DNA of 51,253 nt, counting the filler, from Anaerolineae bacterium (GTDB lineage: Bacteria; Chloroflexota; Anaerolineae; Epilineales; Epilineaceae), in NCBI GenBank assembly GCA_029262755.1. It is 9 parts of 9 records of this genome, joined end to end, with 100 filler letters (N's around TTAATTAATTAA, not from the genome) between each part and the next. Parts side by side here need not be neighbours in the genome. Positions count along the whole stretch, not along the records: positions 46,644 to 51,253 come from JAJCYU010000428.1; 8 more parts are not named here. One strand, given 5' to 3'. Within the stretch, counting starts at the first letter, position 1. Each line of letters opens with the position of its first letter. The position numbers and the translations under genes were made by a program. The notes beneath the pieces are model-generated. The model did not search any database. It worked only from the letters and a program-made list of their open reading frames with translations, and was not told the DNA's origin. Below, in pieces: positions 33,928 through 51,253 of the stretch.

Positions 33928-34027
33928 NNNNNNNNNNNNNNNNNNNNNNNNNNNNNNNNNNNNNNNNNNNNTTAATTAATTAANNNNNNNNNNNNNNNNN
34001 NNNNNNNNNNNNNNNNNNNNNNNNNNN

Positions 34028-34533
34028 CATTCATCACCAGAATAAAACTTATAGGTAAAACTCTTACCAATAGAATTAGAACGCCGCACAGCCTTTATCA
34101 CGTACTCTGCAAGCTGTTGAAGCTCTCTTGCCAGACAACGGACATCCTGGGTTATCAAATAGATGTCACAACCCAAATGACGATGCATTTGAAAGAAAAG
34201 AAACACCTTAACATCATAAAACTTACGGTGAAAGTAATTACCACTCTGCGCTTCATCAATAATATAAATAACATTAGAGTTCATGCAAAAGGTCTCTTGA
34301 TATTTGTTATCGAAAAAAGATGATAGTCCACCAGCATCAGCAATATATTTGTCCAGGTCTTCGCCAAGTTTCATATTCTTGATATTTGTATAAACTCTAA
34401 CATCAATATTCTTTTCTTTAGAAACCCAAGAGTCTAATTCATCAGACCATGTGTAATAAGATTTTAGTACATGATTAACGGCATAGTAGGTCTTACCGGA
34501 ACCTATTTTTCCCTGAATTAATCGTATAGCCAT
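34028..34533 (-). CDS. Inovirus pI/Zot-like morphogenesis ATPase, 3'-partial
   Basis: Walker A GKIGSGKTY, Walker B IIDEAQ and QMHRHLGCDIYLITQ. Confidence 0.92.
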
Positions 34534-34534
34534 T

Positions 34535-35926
34535 TTATATTTTCCTCACAAATCTAAGTTTCTGATTTTCAAAGTCTTTTTCATTAAAGAGAATTTCAAC
34601 AGAAAGAAGCAAAATCAGCTCTGTTTTTGTTTTATTGATATCCTCAGACCTGAACATTTTTCCAAGATAAGGAATATCACCAAGAAGCGGTATTTTTCTG
34701 ACTTTCTTATTCATAGAATTTTCCATTAAACCACCTACATAAATTTTCTGTCCGTCATTAATCAATGTAGTCATTTCAAGTGAGTTTTTAGTAAATGATG
34801 GTGAGTCTATTAAAGGATTCTGAACAGTTTGTATAATGTTACTAATTTCTTGACTAAGATATAATTTTACAACATTGTTTTCTTCAACATCAACCTTGAC
34901 GTTAAGTATTACACCAACATCTCGATATTCGATATTCTCAGACCTTAAACCATTTTCGGATACGGAAGTACCTTTTCGAATAGGTTCAGACCTTCCAATC
35001 TTAATTACTGAGGTTTGCCCATCCTGGACTAATACATGGGGCTTCGAAAGTATCTCTACTCTGCTTTCAGAATTTAAAATGGTTATGAATGAATTTACAT
35101 CTCTGTGAAATGTAAAAGCACTGAGACCCTTACCAGCTAGGCCAGTGGTTAAGGACGTTATTCCCTCTGTTAATAAAGATACTTGACCGCCTCTATTATT
35201 ATTTGTATTAAAGAAGTACTCTACACCATATTGAAGCGCATCATTTAAAGTTACTTCCATAATGGTAAATTCAACCAGAACCTGTTTAGGCCGTTTATCA
35301 AAGGTTTTAATGACATCCTTAACTTTTTGATAATCGTCAATACTGGCCTTAATGATTAATACATTGATACTTCTGTTTTCAGTAATAGCAATTTCAGGAA
35401 AGACATCATTTAGTAAAGATTTAAGGTTTTCCGAGCTTTCATATTGCAGGCGATAGAGATAAACGTTCTTTGTGTCATCCGGTGAAATTTGTATATTAAG
35501 ATCGTTCAGGTTTTCATTGTTATGAATCCCATACAAAGCACCATTTTTAATCAGTTGATAGTTTTTACTATTTAGAACGGTACTAACCATTTTGAGAATT
35601 TCATCTCTTTTGAATTTTCCTTTTATTTCGATATCTACGTAACCGATTAGATCATCTACTATGATATAATTCTCTTTGATAATACCCATCAAGAGACTAA
35701 CAACGTCTTTGAGTTCAACTTGTTCAAATTGCATATCAACGTCAATGCCACCTTTCTTAAGTTCTGGTTTAGTCTTACCGTCTTTGACCTTCCATTGCCA
35801 GCTTTCTACATTTTTTGTTTTGGCCGTATTTGTAAAAAGTTTTTTCTCTGGTTTCTTCTTCAAAAAAGCGCATCCCGGAGTAAAAAAACATATTACAAAT
35901 ACTAAGGCACAAAGTTTTCTGAGCAT
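34535..35926 (-). CDS. Secretin (pIV/GspD family) with a lipoprotein-like signal peptide
   Basis: AAGGAAG RBS before ATG 35926; N0- and N3-like domains; KQVLVEFTIMEV, IEYRDVGVIL and KIPLLGDIPYLGKMFRS...KTELILLL motifs. Confidence 0.92.
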   Translation of the reverse strand: MLRKLCALVFVICFFTPGCAFLKKKPEKKLFTNTAKTKNVESWQWKVKDGKTKPELKKGGIDVDMQFEQVELKDVVSLLMGIIKENYIIVDDLIGYVDIEIKGKFKRDEILKMVSTVLNSKNYQLIKNGALYGIHNNENLNDLNIQISPDDTKNVYLYRLQYESSENLKSLLNDVFPEIAITENRSINVLIIKASIDDYQKVKDVIKTFDKRPKQVLVEFTIMEVTLNDALQYGVEYFFNTNNNRGGQVSLLTEGITSLTTGLAGKGLSAFTFHRDVNSFITILNSESRVEILSKPHVLVQDGQTSVIKIGRSEPIRKGTSVSENGLRSENIEYRDVGVILNVKVDVEENNVVKLYLSQEISNIIQTVQNPLIDSPSFTKNSLEMTTLINDGQKIYVGGLMENSMNKKVRKIPLLGDIPYLGKMFRSEDINKTKTELILLLSVEILFNEKDFENQKLRFVRKI

Positions 35927-36123
35927 TATTGAGACTTCCTTTTTAATATTGAAATTTCTGGAAGTAAAAAAAATCACGCCAATAAAAGCGTTTGTCATGA
36001 TTTCATATACTTCCAGAAACATTTAGTTTAAAAGCATTGATAAAAAACGTAAAAGAAAAGGTATTTATGATTTTCATTTCCGTTTTTTATAACAGATCAG
36101 GGATATACGATTTCAGTGGTTGT

Positions 36124-36459
36124 CTATAACCGGACAAAGGGGATCATCCTGATTGCCATTCTAAAAGCAACCGCAGACATAATGAGCGAAAATCCTTCAA
36201 CGATTTTCAGGTGAACGGCAAACCATGCCGTAATGCCGGTAAAATTGATTAGATAGCTATTGACGCCGTAAGTGCCATCAATAGTGTTTAACGTCCCCAT
36301 AACACCTTCAATCAACATATAGATAAGACGGCTAAAAAGAACAGGTAGAACCGTTATAACTATTGTCCATATGAATAACTTCATCGCAGTGAACCGGACA
36401 ACGCTATATCCTACCCAACTACCAAAGGCCGAAAGTAACCAACTTAATAATGCAGGCAT
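36124..36459 (-). CDS. Inovirus minor coat protein pVI-like
   Basis: 111 aa, hydrophobic, ending in IMSAVAFRMAIRMIPFVRL; lies directly after the pIII-like gene; AGGGAG RBS. Confidence 0.8.
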   Translation of the reverse strand: MPALLSWLLSAFGSWVGYSVVRFTAMKLFIWTIVITVLPVLFSRLIYMLIEGVMGTLNTIDGTYGVNSYLINFTGITAWFAVHLKIVEGFSLIMSAVAFRMAIRMIPFVRL

Positions 36460-36472
36460 TTGTTAAACTCCC

Positions 36473-37355
36473 TTAAATTCCCATCGCTATAAAAACAGCC
36501 CTTATGGCCATTAAACCCAATACAAAACTACCAAACAAATCGACCATCCAATCAAGTGAACAAAAATCAATACTCATACTTTTTCCAAATAACGTTAAAG
36601 GAAGTGAGCACGTTGCACCAGTAACGTTAATCTGGCTACCAGTGGCTAGAAGTACCAGAGGATTAGAGGCCAGATATCCGGTTATTAAGCCAGTCCAATC
36701 CGTTTCCCCAACATCAGTTGGAGAACCCGGAAGACTTGCATCATAGGTAGAACTATCGGCAGAGCCAATAGAACCATAGACAGTACCAACAGGAATAGAG
36801 CCTGTACTATCAAGACCTGATATGTCATCTATACCGTCTTGATTAGCATCAGTAAAATTTCCTGGAGGTTGTGAAACCGGAGTTCCAGTGCCACATACAC
36901 CACCATAATCAATACCAGTTTCGTCTTGATTCATTATTCCATCAGAACAAGTCTCGGCAGGGGGGCACACAAGACCAAAGTTTAATTCACAAACTCCACC
37001 GCAATCAATACCAGTTTCATCCTGATTCTGGATACCATCAAAACAATCCGGCAATTGTGGAACATCCTCTATAAAATCGTATAAATCAACAGGATTTCCA
37101 TTTATTGATCCTGAATTTACATTTCCAAGACCACTTGGCTGAATATCGAAAGGTAATTCAAAGCCTTGAGTTTCATGAAACACATCATTATAATTAGCAT
37201 TTATACTGTCGGTGTAACATTTAACATTAACACTCGTACCAAAACCAGCACTCATATACTCACAATATTCATTTTGTGAACTACTTAAACTTGCATCTAC
37301 ATATTGTTGAGTCATTTGTACATTAGTAGCTGATACATTTATGGCCATACCCGGA
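36473..37355 (-). CDS. Inovirus attachment protein pIII-like, probably 5'-partial
   Basis: Gly/Asp/Ser-rich linkers, C-terminal C...IDFC pair and terminal TM anchor; position before pVI. Confidence 0.75.
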
Positions 37356-37525
37356 NNNNNNNNNNNNNNNNNNNNNNNNNNNNNNNNNNNNNNNNNNNNT
37401 TAATTAATTAANNNNNNNNNNNNNNNNNNNNNNNNNNNNNNNNNNNNNNNNNNNNTGGGGTTTGGCCCGTACACGCGGGTGGGGTATGGGTAGTAATGGC
37501 GTGCGGGGGTGTAACTAAACCGTGC

Positions 37526-37547
37526 GGCCGGCGCTCACGCGCCGGCC
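37526..37547 (+). terminator. GC-rich hairpin just after a TAA near the contig start
   Basis: ggccggcgc-tcac-gcgccggcc; weak U-tract. Confidence 0.35.
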
Positions 37548-38197
37548 TCTCGCGATTCCATGGCCTGGATTCACGCTGGGATCGGCGGCACGAACGGCCC
37601 CCACACCAGCGTGAACGCTTCGTCTCGTCGCTGCTCGTCGATCTCCTACATGCCAGATGCCCGCGAAGCATACTTCGCTGAGGTGCTCGCACAGGGAGAC
37701 GGCGTCCTCCGCTCTGCGCGCCCGTGAAGACCTCGCCGGCGCTGTACGGGCTGAAGATCATGAACTACGCGCCGTAGGAGCGAACGCCCTCGGCACCGTC
37801 TCTGGCCGTCGTCGCTCCTTCCCCGCCGATGGCGACCATGTCGACGCCTCGTCAACCGAGCGCCCTCAGATGCTCCACGGTCCTGATGCCCTTGCTGCAG
37901 GCCGTCTCGTCACGCCGTGACGGAAAGGGGGTCACGCCGTGAGACAGCTCCTGTCACGCTGTGGCGGCAGCTTGATCACGCCTTGGCACGAACCCGGGAA
38001 CGTCATGGTCTAGGTGACTTCAAACCGCGATACCTCCGGGTTGCGCCGCGGGAGGGAACCGGACGCGCGCCACAGGCGTTCAGCGATCGGCAAGGGGGAG
38101 CAACAGCATCGTCCTTGCACCCATCCGCTCCGCCCCGCCTCTCCATCACCGGCGCGCATCTTACCCTAGCGCGCCATTCAGCCACCAGGAGTGCGCC

Positions 38198-46543: not shown

Positions 46544-46643
46544 NNNNNNNNNNNNNNNNNNNNNNNNNNNNNNNNNNNNNNNNNNNNTTAATTAATTAAN
46601 NNNNNNNNNNNNNNNNNNNNNNNNNNNNNNNNNNNNNNNNNNN

Positions 46644-46919
46644 CAAATAATCCAACTTATAAGCCTTGTCTTAGGCTTAATCTCCCAAATCAACAATAGC
46701 CCGGAGCTTAAAGAATCATTCGGGCTTATTAAACACGTCTTTAAAAAAGACAAAATGTCTTTCATGGACTCACTCACTGTCATCCGACAAGGTACTCACA
46801 TTTTAAATAACGTGGCAAACACACCAGAAACACAAGGCCAACTAGCTGAAATAAAGGCAATAGTTGGCGCACTGGAAAATACCAAACCTAAGAAAAAGAA
46901 ACTTCACCAGGAGGAATAA
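46644..46919 (+). CDS. 95-aa ORF spanning the circular junction (51101-51253 joined to 46785-46919)
   Basis: Open frame ending ...KPKKKKLHQEE* at 46919; start ATG at 51101 preceded by AAAGGA. Confidence 0.75.
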   Translation, partial: QIIQLISLVLGLISQINNSPELKESFGLIKHVFKKDKMSFMDSLTVIRQGTHILNNVANTPETQGQLAEIKAIVGALENTKPKKKKLHQEE

Positions 46920-46923
46920 TGCC

Positions 46924-47697
46924 ATGTCGTTTACCGACTTTATCTCTCCTGCGTTAGGCGCAGTCGGCTTAGCTGTCGATAATGAGAATACTCGTAAAAA
47001 TCGTAACATGCAAAAAGACTTTGCCCGGATGGGTATCCGGTGGAAAGTCGCAGACGCTAAGGCGGCGGGGATTCATCCCCTCGCCGCCCTCGGCGCAAAC
47101 ACAATGCCCTTCAATCCTGTCTATGGTTCGAGCGTAGCAGACGACCTTAGCAATATAGGTCAGGATGTTAGTCGAGCTATCGACTCTACACGTACATTAA
47201 AGGAAAGGGCAGAACACGCTAAACTTGACTTGGAAGCAAAGCGTTTACAAGTCGAAGGTCTCTCCGTAGACTTACAAAACAAAAGAGCTACAAATCCACC
47301 TATGGCAACACTTCCCGGCAATAAACTCAACGGAACCGTTGATGTGGTAAAAGCAAGGGTTGTTGGTAGCGATGAAAAAGACCTCACTAAAGAGGCCGGT
47401 GTCCATCCGGGCCACACTTATTACGCTAATGGTGATGGCTCTTATACTCCTATCCCCTCTGAAAGAGCTAAGGAAGGTATCGAAGATATGACTCTTGCTG
47501 AAATGCAGTGGCAGTTTAGAAATCTTATCCTTCCTAAAACTAAACCTCCCTTTTTACCAAAAGGTGCAACCGGCTGGAAGTGGAAACAACACAAGTTCGC
47601 ATGGTATCCGGTTTATCCACGTGGTCACAAAAAACGTTCTAAATCGGTATTCCGAAAACTTCAAGAAAGGGGTCTGAAAGGTACCCCATTTGAATAA
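46924..47697 (+). CDS. Microvirus DNA pilot protein (VP2/H-like)
   Basis: AGGAGG RBS; Ala/Gly-rich N-terminus, GIRWKVADAKAAGIHPLAALGA motif and a coiled coil. Confidence 0.85.
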   Translation: MSFTDFISPALGAVGLAVDNENTRKNRNMQKDFARMGIRWKVADAKAAGIHPLAALGANTMPFNPVYGSSVADDLSNIGQDVSRAIDSTRTLKERAEHAKLDLEAKRLQVEGLSVDLQNKRATNPPMATLPGNKLNGTVDVVKARVVGSDEKDLTKEAGVHPGHTYYANGDGSYTPIPSERAKEGIEDMTLAEMQWQFRNLILPKTKPPFLPKGATGWKWKQHKFAWYPVYPRGHKKRSKSVFRKLQERGLKGTPFE

Positions 47698-48644
47698 TGG
47701 CACTTTGTAAATACGCTTACTTCCATTACGGTCTGGAAATATTCTTCGGTTGCGGTCAGTGTCACGTATGCCGCATAAATAAAAGAAGAGAATGGACCGC
47801 ACGCTTAATACTCGAAGCTCAACAACATAAACATAGATGCTTCGTAACTTTAACTTATAATGATCATTGGCTTCCCCTTCGTGGTGAATTAATGCCAGAT
47901 GATCTAACTAAATTTTTTAAACGACTTAGAAAGGAGTTAAAAAAAAATGAACGTTTACTGCGCTATTTCGGATGTGGTGAATATGGTGAGCAAACAAACA
48001 GACCGCACTATCATGCTCTCCTATTTGGCGTTGATGAAAAAGAACAGAGCCTTATTGAGAAAGCATGGAGTAAGAACAACTCCGCACTTGGCACTATACA
48101 CATGGGTTCAATTACTGAGGACTCAATCTCTTATGTAGCCGGGTACGTTTTAAAGAAAGGCTTTAAGAAAAATACTGGTGAAAAAGAAGTTCCAGAATTT
48201 GCTCGTATGTCTTTAAAGCCCGGAATCGGTAAATTATCAATGGACCTATATGCTAAGTATATGAAAGAGCAAGGTCATAATACACAAGAAATGCAACTCG
48301 GTGGCGACTGCCCCGGACAATTACGAATAAATGGAAAGTTCTGGCCTATAGGCCGTTATCTACGTACAGCTTTCCGGAAAGGATTACAAATAAATGAAGA
48401 ACAAGCGAAGGCGATCAACATCAAGGTCTTACGTGCAGAAACGGAAAAACGTCTCAAGGAAATCGAGACGTCGCAAGAATATGAAGAGGAGGTGAAGTTA
48501 ATCAATCAGGCTCGTGTAGCCAAACTCATCGACTCACAACAAGCAAGACAACAAAAGATGATGATTTATAATCGCTCAAAAGTTGAGCTTTCAGAAAAAT
48601 TATCTCTCATCTATAAAAAAGGAAGGATTCTAGATAATGTCTAA
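47697..48644 (+). CDS. Microvirus rolling-circle replication initiator (VP4, HUH endonuclease)
   Basis: CGQCHVC, motif I FVTLTY, GEYG, motif II RPHYHALLFG, motif III YVAGYVLKK and MSLKPGIG. Confidence 0.95.
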   Translation: MALCKYAYFHYGLEIFFGCGQCHVCRINKRREWTARLILEAQQHKHRCFVTLTYNDHWLPLRGELMPDDLTKFFKRLRKELKKNERLLRYFGCGEYGEQTNRPHYHALLFGVDEKEQSLIEKAWSKNNSALGTIHMGSITEDSISYVAGYVLKKGFKKNTGEKEVPEFARMSLKPGIGKLSMDLYAKYMKEQGHNTQEMQLGGDCPGQLRINGKFWPIGRYLRTAFRKGLQINEEQAKAINIKVLRAETEKRLKEIETSQEYEEEVKLINQARVAKLIDSQQARQQKMMIYNRSKVELSEKLSLIYKKGRILDNV

Positions 48645-50154
48645 AAGATATAACCACAACCTTTCAAATAAACATAGCTCGACCTGTAAACTTGGTCAGC
48701 TAATACCAGTTAACCTCTTTGAGGTTATTCCCGGCGATATTATAAAAGGGGATACTACAAGTCTGGTCAGACTTACCCCTTTACTCGCCCCTCAGTTAAC
48801 AACAATCGAAGCCTATGTAGCACATTATTACGTCCCTTTTCGTTTAATCTGGGACGACTTCGAGGATTTTATTACAGGAGGTGAAAGCGGAAATGAAGCT
48901 CCCACATTACCTACTATCAATCTCGGAACTGTCGCCAAAAGCAGTCTGGCTGATTATTTTGGCATACCTCTTGGCGTTGCTAATACTACCGTTAATGCTC
49001 TACCTTTTCGGGCTTATGCTTCCGTATGGAACGAGCATTTCGCCGACTTCGATATCAATACCGATCTCGTTATCGACAAAACCTCAGGAGCAGACACCAC
49101 AACAAGCACAACCTTAAAACGTGTGAATTGGGCTAAAGACAACTATACATCGGCGAAGCCGTGGGCTCAAAGAGGAACAGCCATATCATTACCTCTTGGA
49201 ACTACTGCTCCCGTAATCGGAACCGCTGGTTCCATTACTTCTAACTCAAACACACCGACTATTACCGGCCCCGGTGTAACAAATCAAAAATTAAGATCTG
49301 ACGCCGTCTTACGTGATAATTTCACAACTGCCGGAACTTTCAGTTCTGATGGTGACGTTATTTTCGGTGACGAATCCGGTCTTCAAATTACCGGAACTTC
49401 ATTAAATGCCGATTTAACATCGGCTACTTCTGCATCTATCGTAGACCTTCGGGAAGCTTTTGGATTACAGAAGTTCTTGGAGCGTCAGGCAGCCGCTGGC
49501 GGTCGTTACGACAAATACTTAGGCCAATGGGGCATTGCTTCACTAGATGCCCGCCTACAGCGTCCTGAATATCTTGGCGGTGGCCACAATCCTATACAGA
49601 TATCTGAAATAGTCCAAACCGGAGTTGATTCCGGTGATGCTGGTGTAGGTAATCTTAAAGGTCACGGTATCGGTGGTATCAAATCAAACCGTTTCACAAA
49701 ATTCATACCGGAACACGGATATATAATTTCTTTTGTATATCTTAGACCTCAAACTCACTACTTAGACGGCCTTGATCGTCTTTGGTCTCGTACTACCAGA
49801 ACAGACTTTTATGACCCAGACTTAGCAGAAATAGGGATGGATACTGTTCTTAATAAAGAAGTCTATCTCGGACATTCATCTCCTGAAGGCGTACATGGTT
49901 ATAATCATCGGTACCATGACTACAGGCAAAAAAGAAACGTCATATCAGGTGATTTCCGAGACAGTGTTGCTAATTTCTGGCACCTTGCAAGAGACTTCTC
50001 CGGCGATACTGCTCTAAACGAAACATTCATTGAATGTAACCCCGGTGCTCGTATATTCGCCGAACAAACCGAAGATCACGCGTATCTACTCGTCAGCAAT
50101 AACGTTATAGCTAAGCGCATGATTAAAACCGTAAAAGCCTTAAATAAAAGATAG
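48637..50154 (+). CDS. Microvirus major capsid protein (VP1/F family)
   Basis: GQLIPV..FEVIPGD, YYVPFRLIW.DFEDFITGG, NALPFRAY, DARLQRPEYLGGG, EHGYII and FWHLARDF motifs. Confidence 0.97.
   Translation: MSKRYNHNLSNKHSSTCKLGQLIPVNLFEVIPGDIIKGDTTSLVRLTPLLAPQLTTIEAYVAHYYVPFRLIWDDFEDFITGGESGNEAPTLPTINLGTVAKSSLADYFGIPLGVANTTVNALPFRAYASVWNEHFADFDINTDLVIDKTSGADTTTSTTLKRVNWAKDNYTSAKPWAQRGTAISLPLGTTAPVIGTAGSITSNSNTPTITGPGVTNQKLRSDAVLRDNFTTAGTFSSDGDVIFGDESGLQITGTSLNADLTSATSASIVDLREAFGLQKFLERQAAAGGRYDKYLGQWGIASLDARLQRPEYLGGGHNPIQISEIVQTGVDSGDAGVGNLKGHGIGGIKSNRFTKFIPEHGYIISFVYLRPQTHYLDGLDRLWSRTTRTDFYDPDLAEIGMDTVLNKEVYLGHSSPEGVHGYNHRYHDYRQKRNVISGDFRDSVANFWHLARDFSGDTALNETFIECNPGARIFAEQTEDHAYLLVSNNVIAKRMIKTVKALNKR
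48893..49117 (+). CDS. Candidate overprinted single-TM lysis protein in the +1 frame of the capsid gene
   Basis: AGGAGGT at 48876-48882, 10 nt before the ATG; 74 aa with TM AVWLIILAYLLALLILPLMLYLFGLMLP. Confidence 0.45.
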   Translation: MKLPHYLLSISELSPKAVWLIILAYLLALLILPLMLYLFGLMLPYGTSISPTSISIPISLSTKPQEQTPQQAQP

Positions 50155-50171
50155 AAAGGAAAATTCTTATC

Positions 50172-50564
50172 ATGGAAAAATTCATTAAGCCAGTAAGATA
50201 TCCCTCCGAAGTGGAAGGAAAAACAGAACACGATGTTAATCACCGTGAAGTACCAGACTCAAAACCATGTGAGCTCGTTCTAGTCCTTGGTCAAGAAGTC
50301 CTAACTCAGAACGAGATAATAACCCGCAGTGTAAATCAAGCTCTTTCTAGGCTTGAATCTGCTCGGGAAGTGGAAACTTTAAAGGACTCTCTCGATTGGA
50401 CTGTAGACGACCCTAATGCTATACCTATTACTCAATACGAGGATACAGGGCAAACCGTTATCCTCGAACCTCCGGCACCTCCGGACCCTGCGCCGGCACC
50501 TCCGGACCCTGCGCCGGCACCCCCGGGTCCTGCGCCGGCACCTCCTACCCCTCCTCCAGCATAA
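50172..50564 (+). CDS. Acidic microvirus protein (possible internal scaffold) with a Pro-rich tail
   Basis: AAAGGA RBS; EVPDSKP...VETLKDSLDW.VDD...TQYE; position directly after the capsid gene. Confidence 0.7.
   Translation: MEKFIKPVRYPSEVEGKTEHDVNHREVPDSKPCELVLVLGQEVLTQNEIITRSVNQALSRLESAREVETLKDSLDWTVDDPNAIPITQYEDTGQTVILEPPAPPDPAPAPPDPAPAPPGPAPAPPTPPPA
50472..50545. repeat. 21-bp GC-rich coding tandem repeat x3.5 (PAPPDPA)
   Basis: ccggcacctccggaccctgcg units at 50472, 50493 and 50514 (variant), plus a partial unit at 50535. Confidence 0.92.
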
Positions 50565-50588
50565 AAAAAATTGCGATATGAGGAGAAA

Positions 50589-50632
50589 AAGAGCCCCACC
50601 CCTTGACAAGGGTGGGGCTCTTACTATATACT
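50589..50632 (+). promoter_or_regulatory. Inverted repeat with TTGACA at its apex, followed by a TATACT -10 box
   Basis: aagagccccaccccttg-a-caagggtggggctctt; TTGACA at 50603-50608, 18-bp spacer, TATACT at 50627-50632, ATG at 50640. Confidence 0.7.
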
Positions 50633-50639
50633 GCTATAC

Positions 50640-51011
50640 ATGGCTAAAAAACGTAGAAAAAATTCAAGACGTAAACGTAACATCCTCAACGTTACTCGCT
50701 CGCGGTTTACTCAATCAATCAAATCTAGGCCATTACGCAGTATAAATCAAGACGATAGGCTCCACAGACCTATCGGCAAAATAGAATCAGATCGAAAACT
50801 TCGTATCACTCTTACCTATAAATCACGTTTACGTGATACTCAAAAAAAACAACGGTTAATTCAACCGTTAAAAACTCTTAATACTTTACATAAAACAATC
50901 TGTAAAGCACGCAAAGCTAGAAAGGAGGTTATCTTTGCGTTAAAAAAAATTGGCGCCGGTTCATCAAAGCGCTCAAAAAAACGGACATATAAATCGTCCG
51001 TAAAATGTTAG
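50640..51011 (+). CDS. Highly basic microvirus protein, putative DNA-binding or packaging function
   Basis: 123 aa, very K/R-rich; ICKARKARKEVIFALKKIGAG motif. Confidence 0.7.
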   Translation: MAKKRRKNSRRKRNILNVTRSRFTQSIKSRPLRSINQDDRLHRPIGKIESDRKLRITLTYKSRLRDTQKKQRLIQPLKTLNTLHKTICKARKARKEVIFALKKIGAGSSKRSKKRTYKSSVKC

Positions 51012-51073
51012 GCCGACGGTCGGCCAGTACGTGTCTCGATACGTACTACGCTAGGTGACACCGGTCATCTAGC
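51011..51073 (+). other. Three adjacent stem-loops in the microvirus intergenic region
   Basis: ggccgac-g-gtcggcc (51011-51025), agtacgtgtc-tc-gatacgtact (51026-51047) and gctaggtgac-accg-gtcatctagc (51050-51073). Confidence 0.8.
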
Positions 51074-51253
51074 AAATCTAAAAAGAAAGGACACACTACA
51101 ATGGGTGTACTACAAATAATCCAACTTATAAGCCTTGTCTTAGGCTTAATCTCCCAAATCAACAATAGCCCGGAGCTTAAAGAATCATTCGGGCTTATTA
51201 AACACGTCTTTAAAAAAGACAAAATGTCTTTCATGGACTCACTCACTGTCATC

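Follow-up and report, generated by a model that had tools for sequence, protein, structure and literature searches.

The stretch of DNA analysed here (the window; 51,253 nucleotides (nt), joined end to end from parts of an Anaerolineae bacterium assembly, GCA_029262755.1) ends in a microvirus contig whose major capsid protein gene, VP1, contains a second, overlapping open reading frame (ORF). The VP1 gene occupies positions 48637..50154 on the + strand, where all genes of this phage lie, encodes 505 amino acids (aa) and matches Pfam family PF02305, Phage_F (E-value 6.4e-92), with 31–47% identity to its relatives. The candidate ORF lies within it at 48893..49117 (+) and comprises 74 codons and a stop, from an ATG at 48893-48895 to a TAA at 49115-49117; the ATG is offset by 256 nt from the VP1 start, which places it in the +1 frame of VP1. 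The opening from stop to stop spans 89 codons and includes an in-frame GTG at 48881. An initial annotation of the window had proposed that this ORF is an overprinted lysis gene resembling gene E of phage phiX174.

The ATG is preceded, at a spacing of 10 nt, by a Shine-Dalgarno (SD)-like AGGAGGT at 48876..48882 (+). SD-like motifs also stand 9-10 nt before other starts of this phage, namely AGGAGG before VP2 (9 nt), GGAAGGA before VP1, AAGGAA before orf130 and AAAGGA before orf95 (9 nt); AGGAGGT is the strongest SD-like site among them, and its 10-nt spacing fits the genome's own pattern. Both elements of the start site are built from capsid codons: the SD-like motif falls in ACA GGA GGT, the Thr-Gly-Gly codons of the FITGG motif, exactly as the initial annotation had cautioned, and the ATG is formed by Asn86-Glu87 (AAT GAA). 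RNA structure around the start is not notable (z -0.55).

The encoded peptide would consist of an 18-residue leader, a hydrophobic stretch of 26-28 residues and a tail rich in Ser, Thr, Pro and Gln. The predicted helix region, residues 19-44 (48947..49024, +), reaches a peak hydropathy (KD19) of 2.82 and contains Pro33 and Pro44, with hydrophobicity extending to about residue 46; the tail, residues 47-74 (49031..49114, +), is near-neutral, and the whole ORF encodes 3 Lys or Arg and 2 Asp or Glu residues. The helix region shares its DNA with VP1 codons 104-130, which contain the conserved LADY(F/L)G and ALPFRAY motifs, and its first part arises from LADY(F/L)G. The description first given of this site, a 74-codon +1 ORF with AGGAGGT 10 nt upstream, one hydrophobic helix and a polar tail, is thus borne out.

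Third bases of VP1 codons serve as middle bases in the +1 frame, so that consecutive VP1 codons ending in T suffice to encode a helix, and a helix written in third positions would barely constrain the capsid protein. In the window, 18 of the VP1 codons under the helix (codons 104-131) end in T against 10.9 expected, and 5 of those under the tail (codons 132-160) do so against 12.2 expected. The same arithmetic underlies the strongest alternative to a gene, namely that a local wealth of T-ending VP1 codons, due to chance or to a cause at the DNA or RNA level, yields the ORF as a by-product that is never translated, with no selection on the ORF itself; this explanation is rated at somewhat less than an even chance, slightly below translation. 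A middle T automatically yields Phe, Leu, Ile, Met or Val and removes stops; moreover, the ATG comes from an Asn-Glu pair, the SD from an invariant Thr-Gly-Gly, and the start of the helix from LADY(F/L)G. In the codons under the helix that do not end in T, none of 10 yields a charged, strongly polar or stop residue in the +1 frame, against 2.35 expected (P 0.039).

How often such an ORF arises by chance was estimated by codon shuffling, as the initial annotation had suggested. In plain synonymous shuffles of VP1 (n = 5000), a +1 ATG-ORF of at least 74 codons appeared in 166/5000, and one that also had KD19 of at least 2.5, taken here as transmembrane (TM)-grade, in 7/5000. This null was rejected because the real VP1 genes of 85 relatives contain 895 +1 stops against 1156 in shuffles, 23% fewer gene-wide, with the result that plain shuffling makes overlapping ORFs in these phages look rarer than they are. 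In a context-preserving null, codons were exchanged only where the amino acid, the first base and the first base of the following codon all agreed, which retains each gene's +1 stop count and +1 composition. Under this null, ORFs of at least 74 codons occurred in 354/5000 VP1 shuffles, TM-grade ORFs of at least 74 codons in 14/5000 and of at least 40 codons in 55/5000; with all five phage genes shuffled (n = 1500), an ATG-started ORF of at least 40 aa with KD of at least 2.5 arose in 22/1500 and one of at least 60 aa in 9/1500. At the start position defined by the clade described below, the probability for the window of an ATG-ORF of at least 45 codons with KD of at least 2.0 is 0.023. By these strict standards the ORF is rare, which a by-product does not predict. 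Under relaxed ones (any start, at least 40 aa, KD of at least 2.0) it is common, being matched in 464/1500 shuffled genomes, and the real genome itself holds a second such ORF, in VP2. The outcome of the shuffling test varies with the null and the thresholds: rarity holds for strict thresholds and fails for relaxed ones. The strict thresholds were set only after the ORF had been seen, so that the real probability of such a find by chance is somewhere from about 1% to a few tens of percent.

A 43-codon ORF with a TTG start overlaps VP2 at 47360-47491; its length equals that of the second ORF passing the relaxed filter, for which the shuffle scan gave a length and no coordinates.

No near relative of the phage was found in the collections searched. 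In a blastn comparison with 50,697 phage records, no record matched more than 4% of the genome, and VP1 identity to the best relatives was 31-44% in scans of IMG/VR, metagenomes and genomes, at most 47% by tblastn against phages and 39-47% in an alignment-based IMG/VR scan. A direct synonymous-rate test on close kin is therefore impossible for the window genome, and the conservation tests rest on distant kin (VP1 identity at most 47%). Of three sequencing runs listed from one study, one is the probable source, one contains the identical strain and one yielded nothing; no RNA data set containing the phage was listed. The only variant is a G>T change at 49303, a VP1 position beyond the candidate ORF, supported by a depth of 3.2 out of 6.8 in a single low-depth contig of run X1, which leaves no usable diversity. 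The comparison set consists of VP1 from 85 relatives with a median of 64% aa identity among themselves, which form 65 clusters at 80%. The term FITGG-motif clade is used here for a large group of small (4.1-4.8 kb) microviruses with five recognised genes and no lysis gene.

Across the 85 relatives, third-position T (T3) reaches its gene-wide maximum, 1.45 times expectation, at VP1 codons ~86-110, where synonymous codon diversity also has its gene-wide minimum (Ho/He 0.85, against ~0.97 elsewhere); the top 15 sliding windows for T3 and for low diversity all lie at r=85-99. The T3 excess is contiguous over codons 88-114, the equivalent of 48898..48978 (+) in the window as delimited by third-position base counts, involves all amino-acid types and both four-fold and two-fold boxes, and falls below 1 at codons 117-131. 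At about 27 codons, the patch has the length of one membrane helix, which counts against the by-product explanation.

The composition of the patch goes beyond an excess of T. Third-position ratios are 1.35 for T, 0.84 for G, 0.81 for C and 0.72 for A, and this order of depletion tracks the hydropathy of +1 codons by their middle base. Codons in the patch that do not end in T yield +1 residues more hydrophobic than expected (z 4.8-5.3), and the top 7 of 159 windows for this measure all lie at r=82-100. Gly codons illustrate the effect: GGA, which gives Asp or Glu in the +1 frame, accounts for 0.11 of choices in the patch against 0.21 outside, and GGC, which gives Ala, for 0.37 against 0.33. A generic T-rich element predicts neither that A should be the most depleted base nor that GGA should be halved with GGC unreduced. 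Stop-making codons make up 0.16 of non-T choices at codons 86-113 against 0.35 elsewhere (Fisher 2.5e-6). ATG-started +1 ORFs of at least 45 codons with KD19 of at least 2.0 begin at codons 80-92 in 28/85 relatives against 8.1 expected, and the ATG of the window is one codon away from the commonest start site of hydrophobic +1 ORFs in the clade. Of the genomes that do not belong to the dominant IMG/VR sample series, 26/36 have a positive T3 z (sign test p 0.011), a set that took in 15 of 16 GenBank genomes and left out L103. This clade-wide codon signature at the site of the ORF was unexpected and is the best argument for translation.

Several causes of the patch other than translation were considered and rejected. 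Mutation biased from C or G to T would not leave A the most depleted base; selection for optimal codons does not explain why two-fold boxes favour T over C. A real class of alternative, and the one needed if the patch is non-coding, is selection that acts at the DNA level on synonymous sites; it is documented in phiX174, where, according to one study, synonymous changes in periodic DNA motifs impair packaging (Ogunbunmi et al. 2026, PMC13386984). Those motifs recur genome-wide with a period tied to capsid symmetry, whereas VP1 holds one single patch of ~81 nt that follows +1 hydropathy, and periodic packaging motifs were rejected as its cause. A +1 ribosomal frameshift from VP1 was set aside as the route to the peptide, given that the FITGG codons are unconstrained (Ho/He 0.95-1.02 at columns 76-85) and that there is no excess of openness upstream of codon 79. 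The consensus +1 peptide built from majority codons was discarded as evidence, since through most of VP1 codons 20-115 the majority codons make the +1 frame hydrophobic anyway, as a by-product would have it. The D/E pair of phiX174 proved uninformative as a positive control for a local T3 excess: its baseline T3 is already high (0.83 under the helix) and makes a hydrophobic +1 frame without any local excess, which likewise agrees with a by-product.

A considerable body of evidence from the relatives weighs against a gene. The z-scores pooled over the 85 relatives ignore shared ancestry and are hence inflated, so that the positions of the peaks are more trustworthy than their sizes. The excess in the window does not coincide with the clade patch: T3 has a z of 0.78 over codons 86-113 and of 2.43 over codons 104-131, a shift of about 16 codons downstream. 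The initial annotation had named a conserved +1 frame, a conserved ATG and suppressed synonymous variation as signs of a gene, and in the available relatives the outcome is mostly negative or weak. Over the interval of the helix, VP1 codons 104-131, 34/85 relatives keep an open +1 frame against 35.3 expected (rank 274 of 456 positions), with +1 stops scattered among the relatives. No selection on a start codon was detected: an ATG at the site is found in 63/85 against 59.3 expected, and the T that forms it occurs 68 times against 61.0 expected among relatives with the hydrophobic stretch, and 20 times against 17.9 among those without. The start columns are not conserved (ATG at column 84 in 47/85, ATG at column 87 in 34/85, GTG at column 81 in 35/85), and the GGA codon required for GGAGG at the FITGG Gly occurs in 19/85. 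In 28 phylogenetically independent close pairs, synonymous differences over the interval homologous to the window ORF (codons 86-160) amount to 0.468 against 0.480 elsewhere (p 0.71); within the patch they amount to 0.424 against 0.482, a dip of 12% that is lower in 18/28 pairs and non-significant (p 0.13).

The distribution of the ORF points the same way. The VP1 tree groups the window on a long branch together with relative L076, whose +1 ORF has 19 codons and is non-hydrophobic; in relative L004 the first 12 helix residues are nearly identical and three stops follow. Very close sisters differ in ATG, ORF presence and ORF length, and among ATG-bearing relatives the ORF ranges from 2 to 232 codons. 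Coupling of the hydrophobic stretch to an upstream ATG is a trend only (48/60 against 15/25, p 0.064). The T3 excess is the same with and without an intact ATG-ORF (z 1.72, n=48, against 1.59, n=37; p 0.65), under a strict criterion, an ATG and a frame open through codon 114, by which many ORFs scored as broken still encode hydrophobic peptides of 29-33 residues; a looser definition restores the link (z 2.42 against 0.77) in a comparison that is circular. About one quarter of the relatives, by a count of tree labels, carry at the site an ATG-ORF of at least 40 codons with KD of at least 2.5; if these are by-products, the site is simply prone to them. Avoidance of stop-making codons is equally strong over VP1 codons 281-340, a stretch that shows no excess of T3. 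In 16 GenBank genomes from varied sources the signal runs in the same direction and is weak (T3 1.17 times expectation, A3 0.74): the best patch window, r=91 (1.19), ranks fourth after three at r=187-193 (1.20), and several of the +1 peptides, when read, have charged residues throughout. Bias of host-gene codon choice toward the needs of the second frame, clear in the clade (z about 5), is weaker there (non-T hydropathy z 1.54). The ORF as such is not conserved in the relatives.

A separate region of the relatives' VP1 genes, codons ~277-340 (about 49465-49656 in the window), is also open in the +1 frame above expectation, in 78 against 61.7 of 84 for example; stop-making codons are avoided there (0.10-0.16 of non-T choices), with no T3 excess or hydrophobicity. 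This openness could reflect codon preference at highly conserved residues.

On the comparison of relatives, a real gene and a by-product of codon choice come out about even. With the start site, the peptide and the clade signature taken together, translation of the ORF as an overprinted gene for a small single-pass membrane peptide is put just short of an even chance. Ribosomes would then initiate at the internal SD and ATG within the VP1 message and read the +1 frame, releasing a 74-residue product in which the 18-residue leader precedes a helix of 26-28 residues, containing Pro33 and Pro44, and a polar tail. No relation of this peptide to any known protein emerged: there was no Pfam family at an E-value of 0.01 or less and no PHROGs match, the 36 phmmer matches to PDB chains at an E-value of 10 or less were weak and to unrelated membrane helices, and among 5.8 billion protein sequences, searched at lengths of 40-130 aa only, none shared three 5-residue words with it. 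If the ORF is a gene, it therefore arose independently, in keeping with the independent origin proposed at the outset.

The likeliest role for such a peptide would be that of a single-gene lysis protein that attacks the host envelope as infection ends; given that the peptide is real, this role is somewhat more likely than not. The main alternative role is that of an accessory membrane protein like K of phiX174. More broadly, the peptide could be made without being the lysis protein, as a K-like accessory or as a young, marginal proto-gene, with lysis achieved through orf95 or by another route; this is improbable, and its probability forms part of that given to translation, to which it is not additional. 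With a very strong SD and a place in the most highly expressed gene, a lethal product would be oddly timed, the patchy ORFs of the clade fit a dispensable function, and the candidate lacks the basic tail of E.

The case for a non-lysis peptide also draws on orf95, which spans the circular junction of the phage genome (51101..51253 then 46644..46919, +; both halves appear in the ORF listing). This stand-alone orphan ORF, with its own SD-like site, encodes 95 aa with a hydrophobic N-terminal segment (KD19 1.95 at residue 2), a charged tail (12 Lys or Arg, 9 Asp or Glu) and a Lys-rich C-terminus, and is a conventional lysis candidate for this phage that lowers the need for a hidden gene and so also weighs against one. 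Its hydrophobic segment is borderline for a membrane helix, and tblastn found no counterpart in the loci of 107 relatives; orf95 is therefore not the general lysis solution of the clade, nor that of the five-gene relatives. A holin of a holin-endolysin pair was discarded as a role for the candidate, the partner endolysin being absent: Pfam and PHROG searches detected no peptidase, other muralytic enzyme, endolysin or holin family in any phage ORF.

Many members of the clade may encode a hydrophobic +1 peptide from the same place, with the window ORF as its local, shifted form. In its fullest form this idea holds that the FITGG-motif clade encodes its missing lysis function as a +1 peptide in VP1, placed just after FITGG and written almost wholly in the third positions of VP1 codons 88-114, with the window ORF as a shifted and strongly developed member; so extended, the proposal is somewhat unlikely.

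The remainder of the locus is that of a small microvirus. The window is a concatenation in which DNA of ~68% GC extends to 46543 and is followed by an artificial spacer at 46544-46643 (an N run, TTAATTAATTAA and a second N run) and, from 46644, by the 43% GC phage contig; the two contigs have no physical linkage. Positions 46644-46784 and 51113-51253 form an exact terminal repeat of 141 nt at a spacing of 4469 nt, and the junction 51112->46644 is spanned by a contig in run X1. The repeat and the junction contig therefore define a complete circular genome of 4469 nt (46644..51112, +; ~43% GC in the GC profile), that of a small circular single-stranded DNA (ssDNA) microvirus. Adjacency to the high-GC DNA says nothing reliable about the host of the phage, and the gap in GC content argues against the high-GC organism in that role. 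Two contigs among the relatives, L009 (22,486 nt) and L014 (17,225 nt, titled as an Alphaproteobacteria metagenome-assembled genome), carry VP1 on sequences far exceeding a microvirus genome; they may be integrated prophages and possible pointers to hosts. Elsewhere in the window, a low-GC island (0.32-0.48) lies at 34001-38000 within DNA of 0.60-0.74 GC and may be foreign DNA or another joined contig.

Upstream of VP1, a gene for a VP2-like DNA pilot protein (46924..47697, +) matches PHROG pilot protein families (best E-value 7e-4) and has tblastn matches in 89 loci; the VP4 replication initiator gene (47697..48644, +) matches Pfam PF23343 (E-value 4.5e-22) and overlaps the start of VP1 by 8 nt at its 3' end. 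Further phage ORFs are orf130 and the basic orf123; PHROGs gave no match for either or for a 54-aa part of orf95. Near the end of orf130, a 21-nt tandem repeat at 50451-50555 encodes Pro-Ala-Pro-rich repeats; in run X1 the contigs have small indels and twice the depth at this repeat, which suggests variation in repeat number or assembly ambiguity.

Lysis in microviruses outside the phiX174 group is an open question on which the candidate ORF bears. A 2012 survey names phiX174 as the only microvirus with a known lysis mechanism and records M15 peptidases in some microviruses (PMC3394797); a 2020 study describes gokushoviruses as having no inhibitor of peptidoglycan synthesis (PMC7062461). The 16 GenBank relatives carry 3-6 annotated features each, with no lysis gene and nothing annotated inside VP1, in line with the statement in the initial annotation that lysis genes are unidentified for most non-phiX-like microviruses. 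A 2022 global survey of microviruses omitted overprinted genes on the ground that computation alone is unable to verify them (PMC9239249). No report of an ORF within VP1 was found in a search of full texts; supplementary gene tables could list overlapping ORFs. If the clade peptide is real, it would be a second, independent invention of the strategy of phiX174 E, this time in a capsid gene, and would supply the first testable lysis-gene candidates outside Bullavirinae. The codon signature (T in third positions, A avoided, one helix length) could then be used to scan small phages for hidden membrane peptides, and single-gene lysis proteins attract interest because new ones may point the way to antibacterial targets. 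Should the ORF be a by-product, an explanation is still needed for the T-rich patch that the clade shares in VP1.

Among known systems, the K protein of phiX174 is a small, hydrophobic, overprinted accessory protein, listed in NC_001422 as a 56-aa coding sequence at 51-221. Like K, the candidate would be a small hydrophobic product of an overlapping microvirus frame, and such a role would explain a dispensable, patchy ORF.

The closest likeness is to E of phiX174, which inhibits MraY and needs the host protein SlyD. Both reading frames lie in the +1 frame inside a structural or morphogenetic microvirus gene, E in D and the candidate in VP1; both encode a Leu-rich helix with a mid-helix Pro (Pro33 in the candidate) and nearly the same peak hydropathy (2.79 for E, 2.82 for the candidate); and in both the host codons end in T under the helix and are T-poor under the tail, with a ratio of 0.83 against 0.60 in D/E. 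The residue patterns are loosely similar as well. These parallels could be taken to mean that the candidate is a diverged homologue or mechanistic twin of E, an inhibitor of MraY with an essential mid-helix proline, yet this is very improbable, and MraY is itself a highly doubtful target. The motif match to E that had been put forward turns out to be inexact, W-x2-LAFLL-x5-LP-x5-F in E standing against W-x3-LAYLL-x4-LP-x5-F in the candidate, so that two one-residue register shifts are required to superimpose them. BLASTP of the candidate against E of NC_001422 gives no alignment at an E-value of 100 or less, and E is not among its 36 PDB matches. The host genes differ, D being an external scaffolding protein and VP1 a homologue of F, and Pfam and PHROG searches found no D-like gene among the ORFs of this phage. 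The helix of E is N-terminal, from about residue 4, whereas that of the candidate is internal, and E ends in a basic tail rich in Lys and Arg, whereas the candidate's is near-neutral. Judged by alignment and layout, membership in the E family is rejected; an E-like way of working, that of a small membrane peptide that triggers lysis, may still apply.

The single-gene lysis (Sgl) proteins of single-stranded RNA (ssRNA) phages offer the wider frame. One study of these proteins describes them as short, often embedded and membrane-associated, without sequence families, and as subject to rapid gain and loss, with positions that vary between related phages (PMC7693330). They differ from the candidate in belonging to RNA phages and in having been validated by expression, the candidate being a predicted ORF of an ssDNA genome. 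The general design is shared, namely a small embedded ORF that encodes a membrane helix, in a phage that has no holin-endolysin pair, and the patchy occurrence of ORFs among the relatives of this phage would fit the pattern of gain and loss seen in the Sgl genes.

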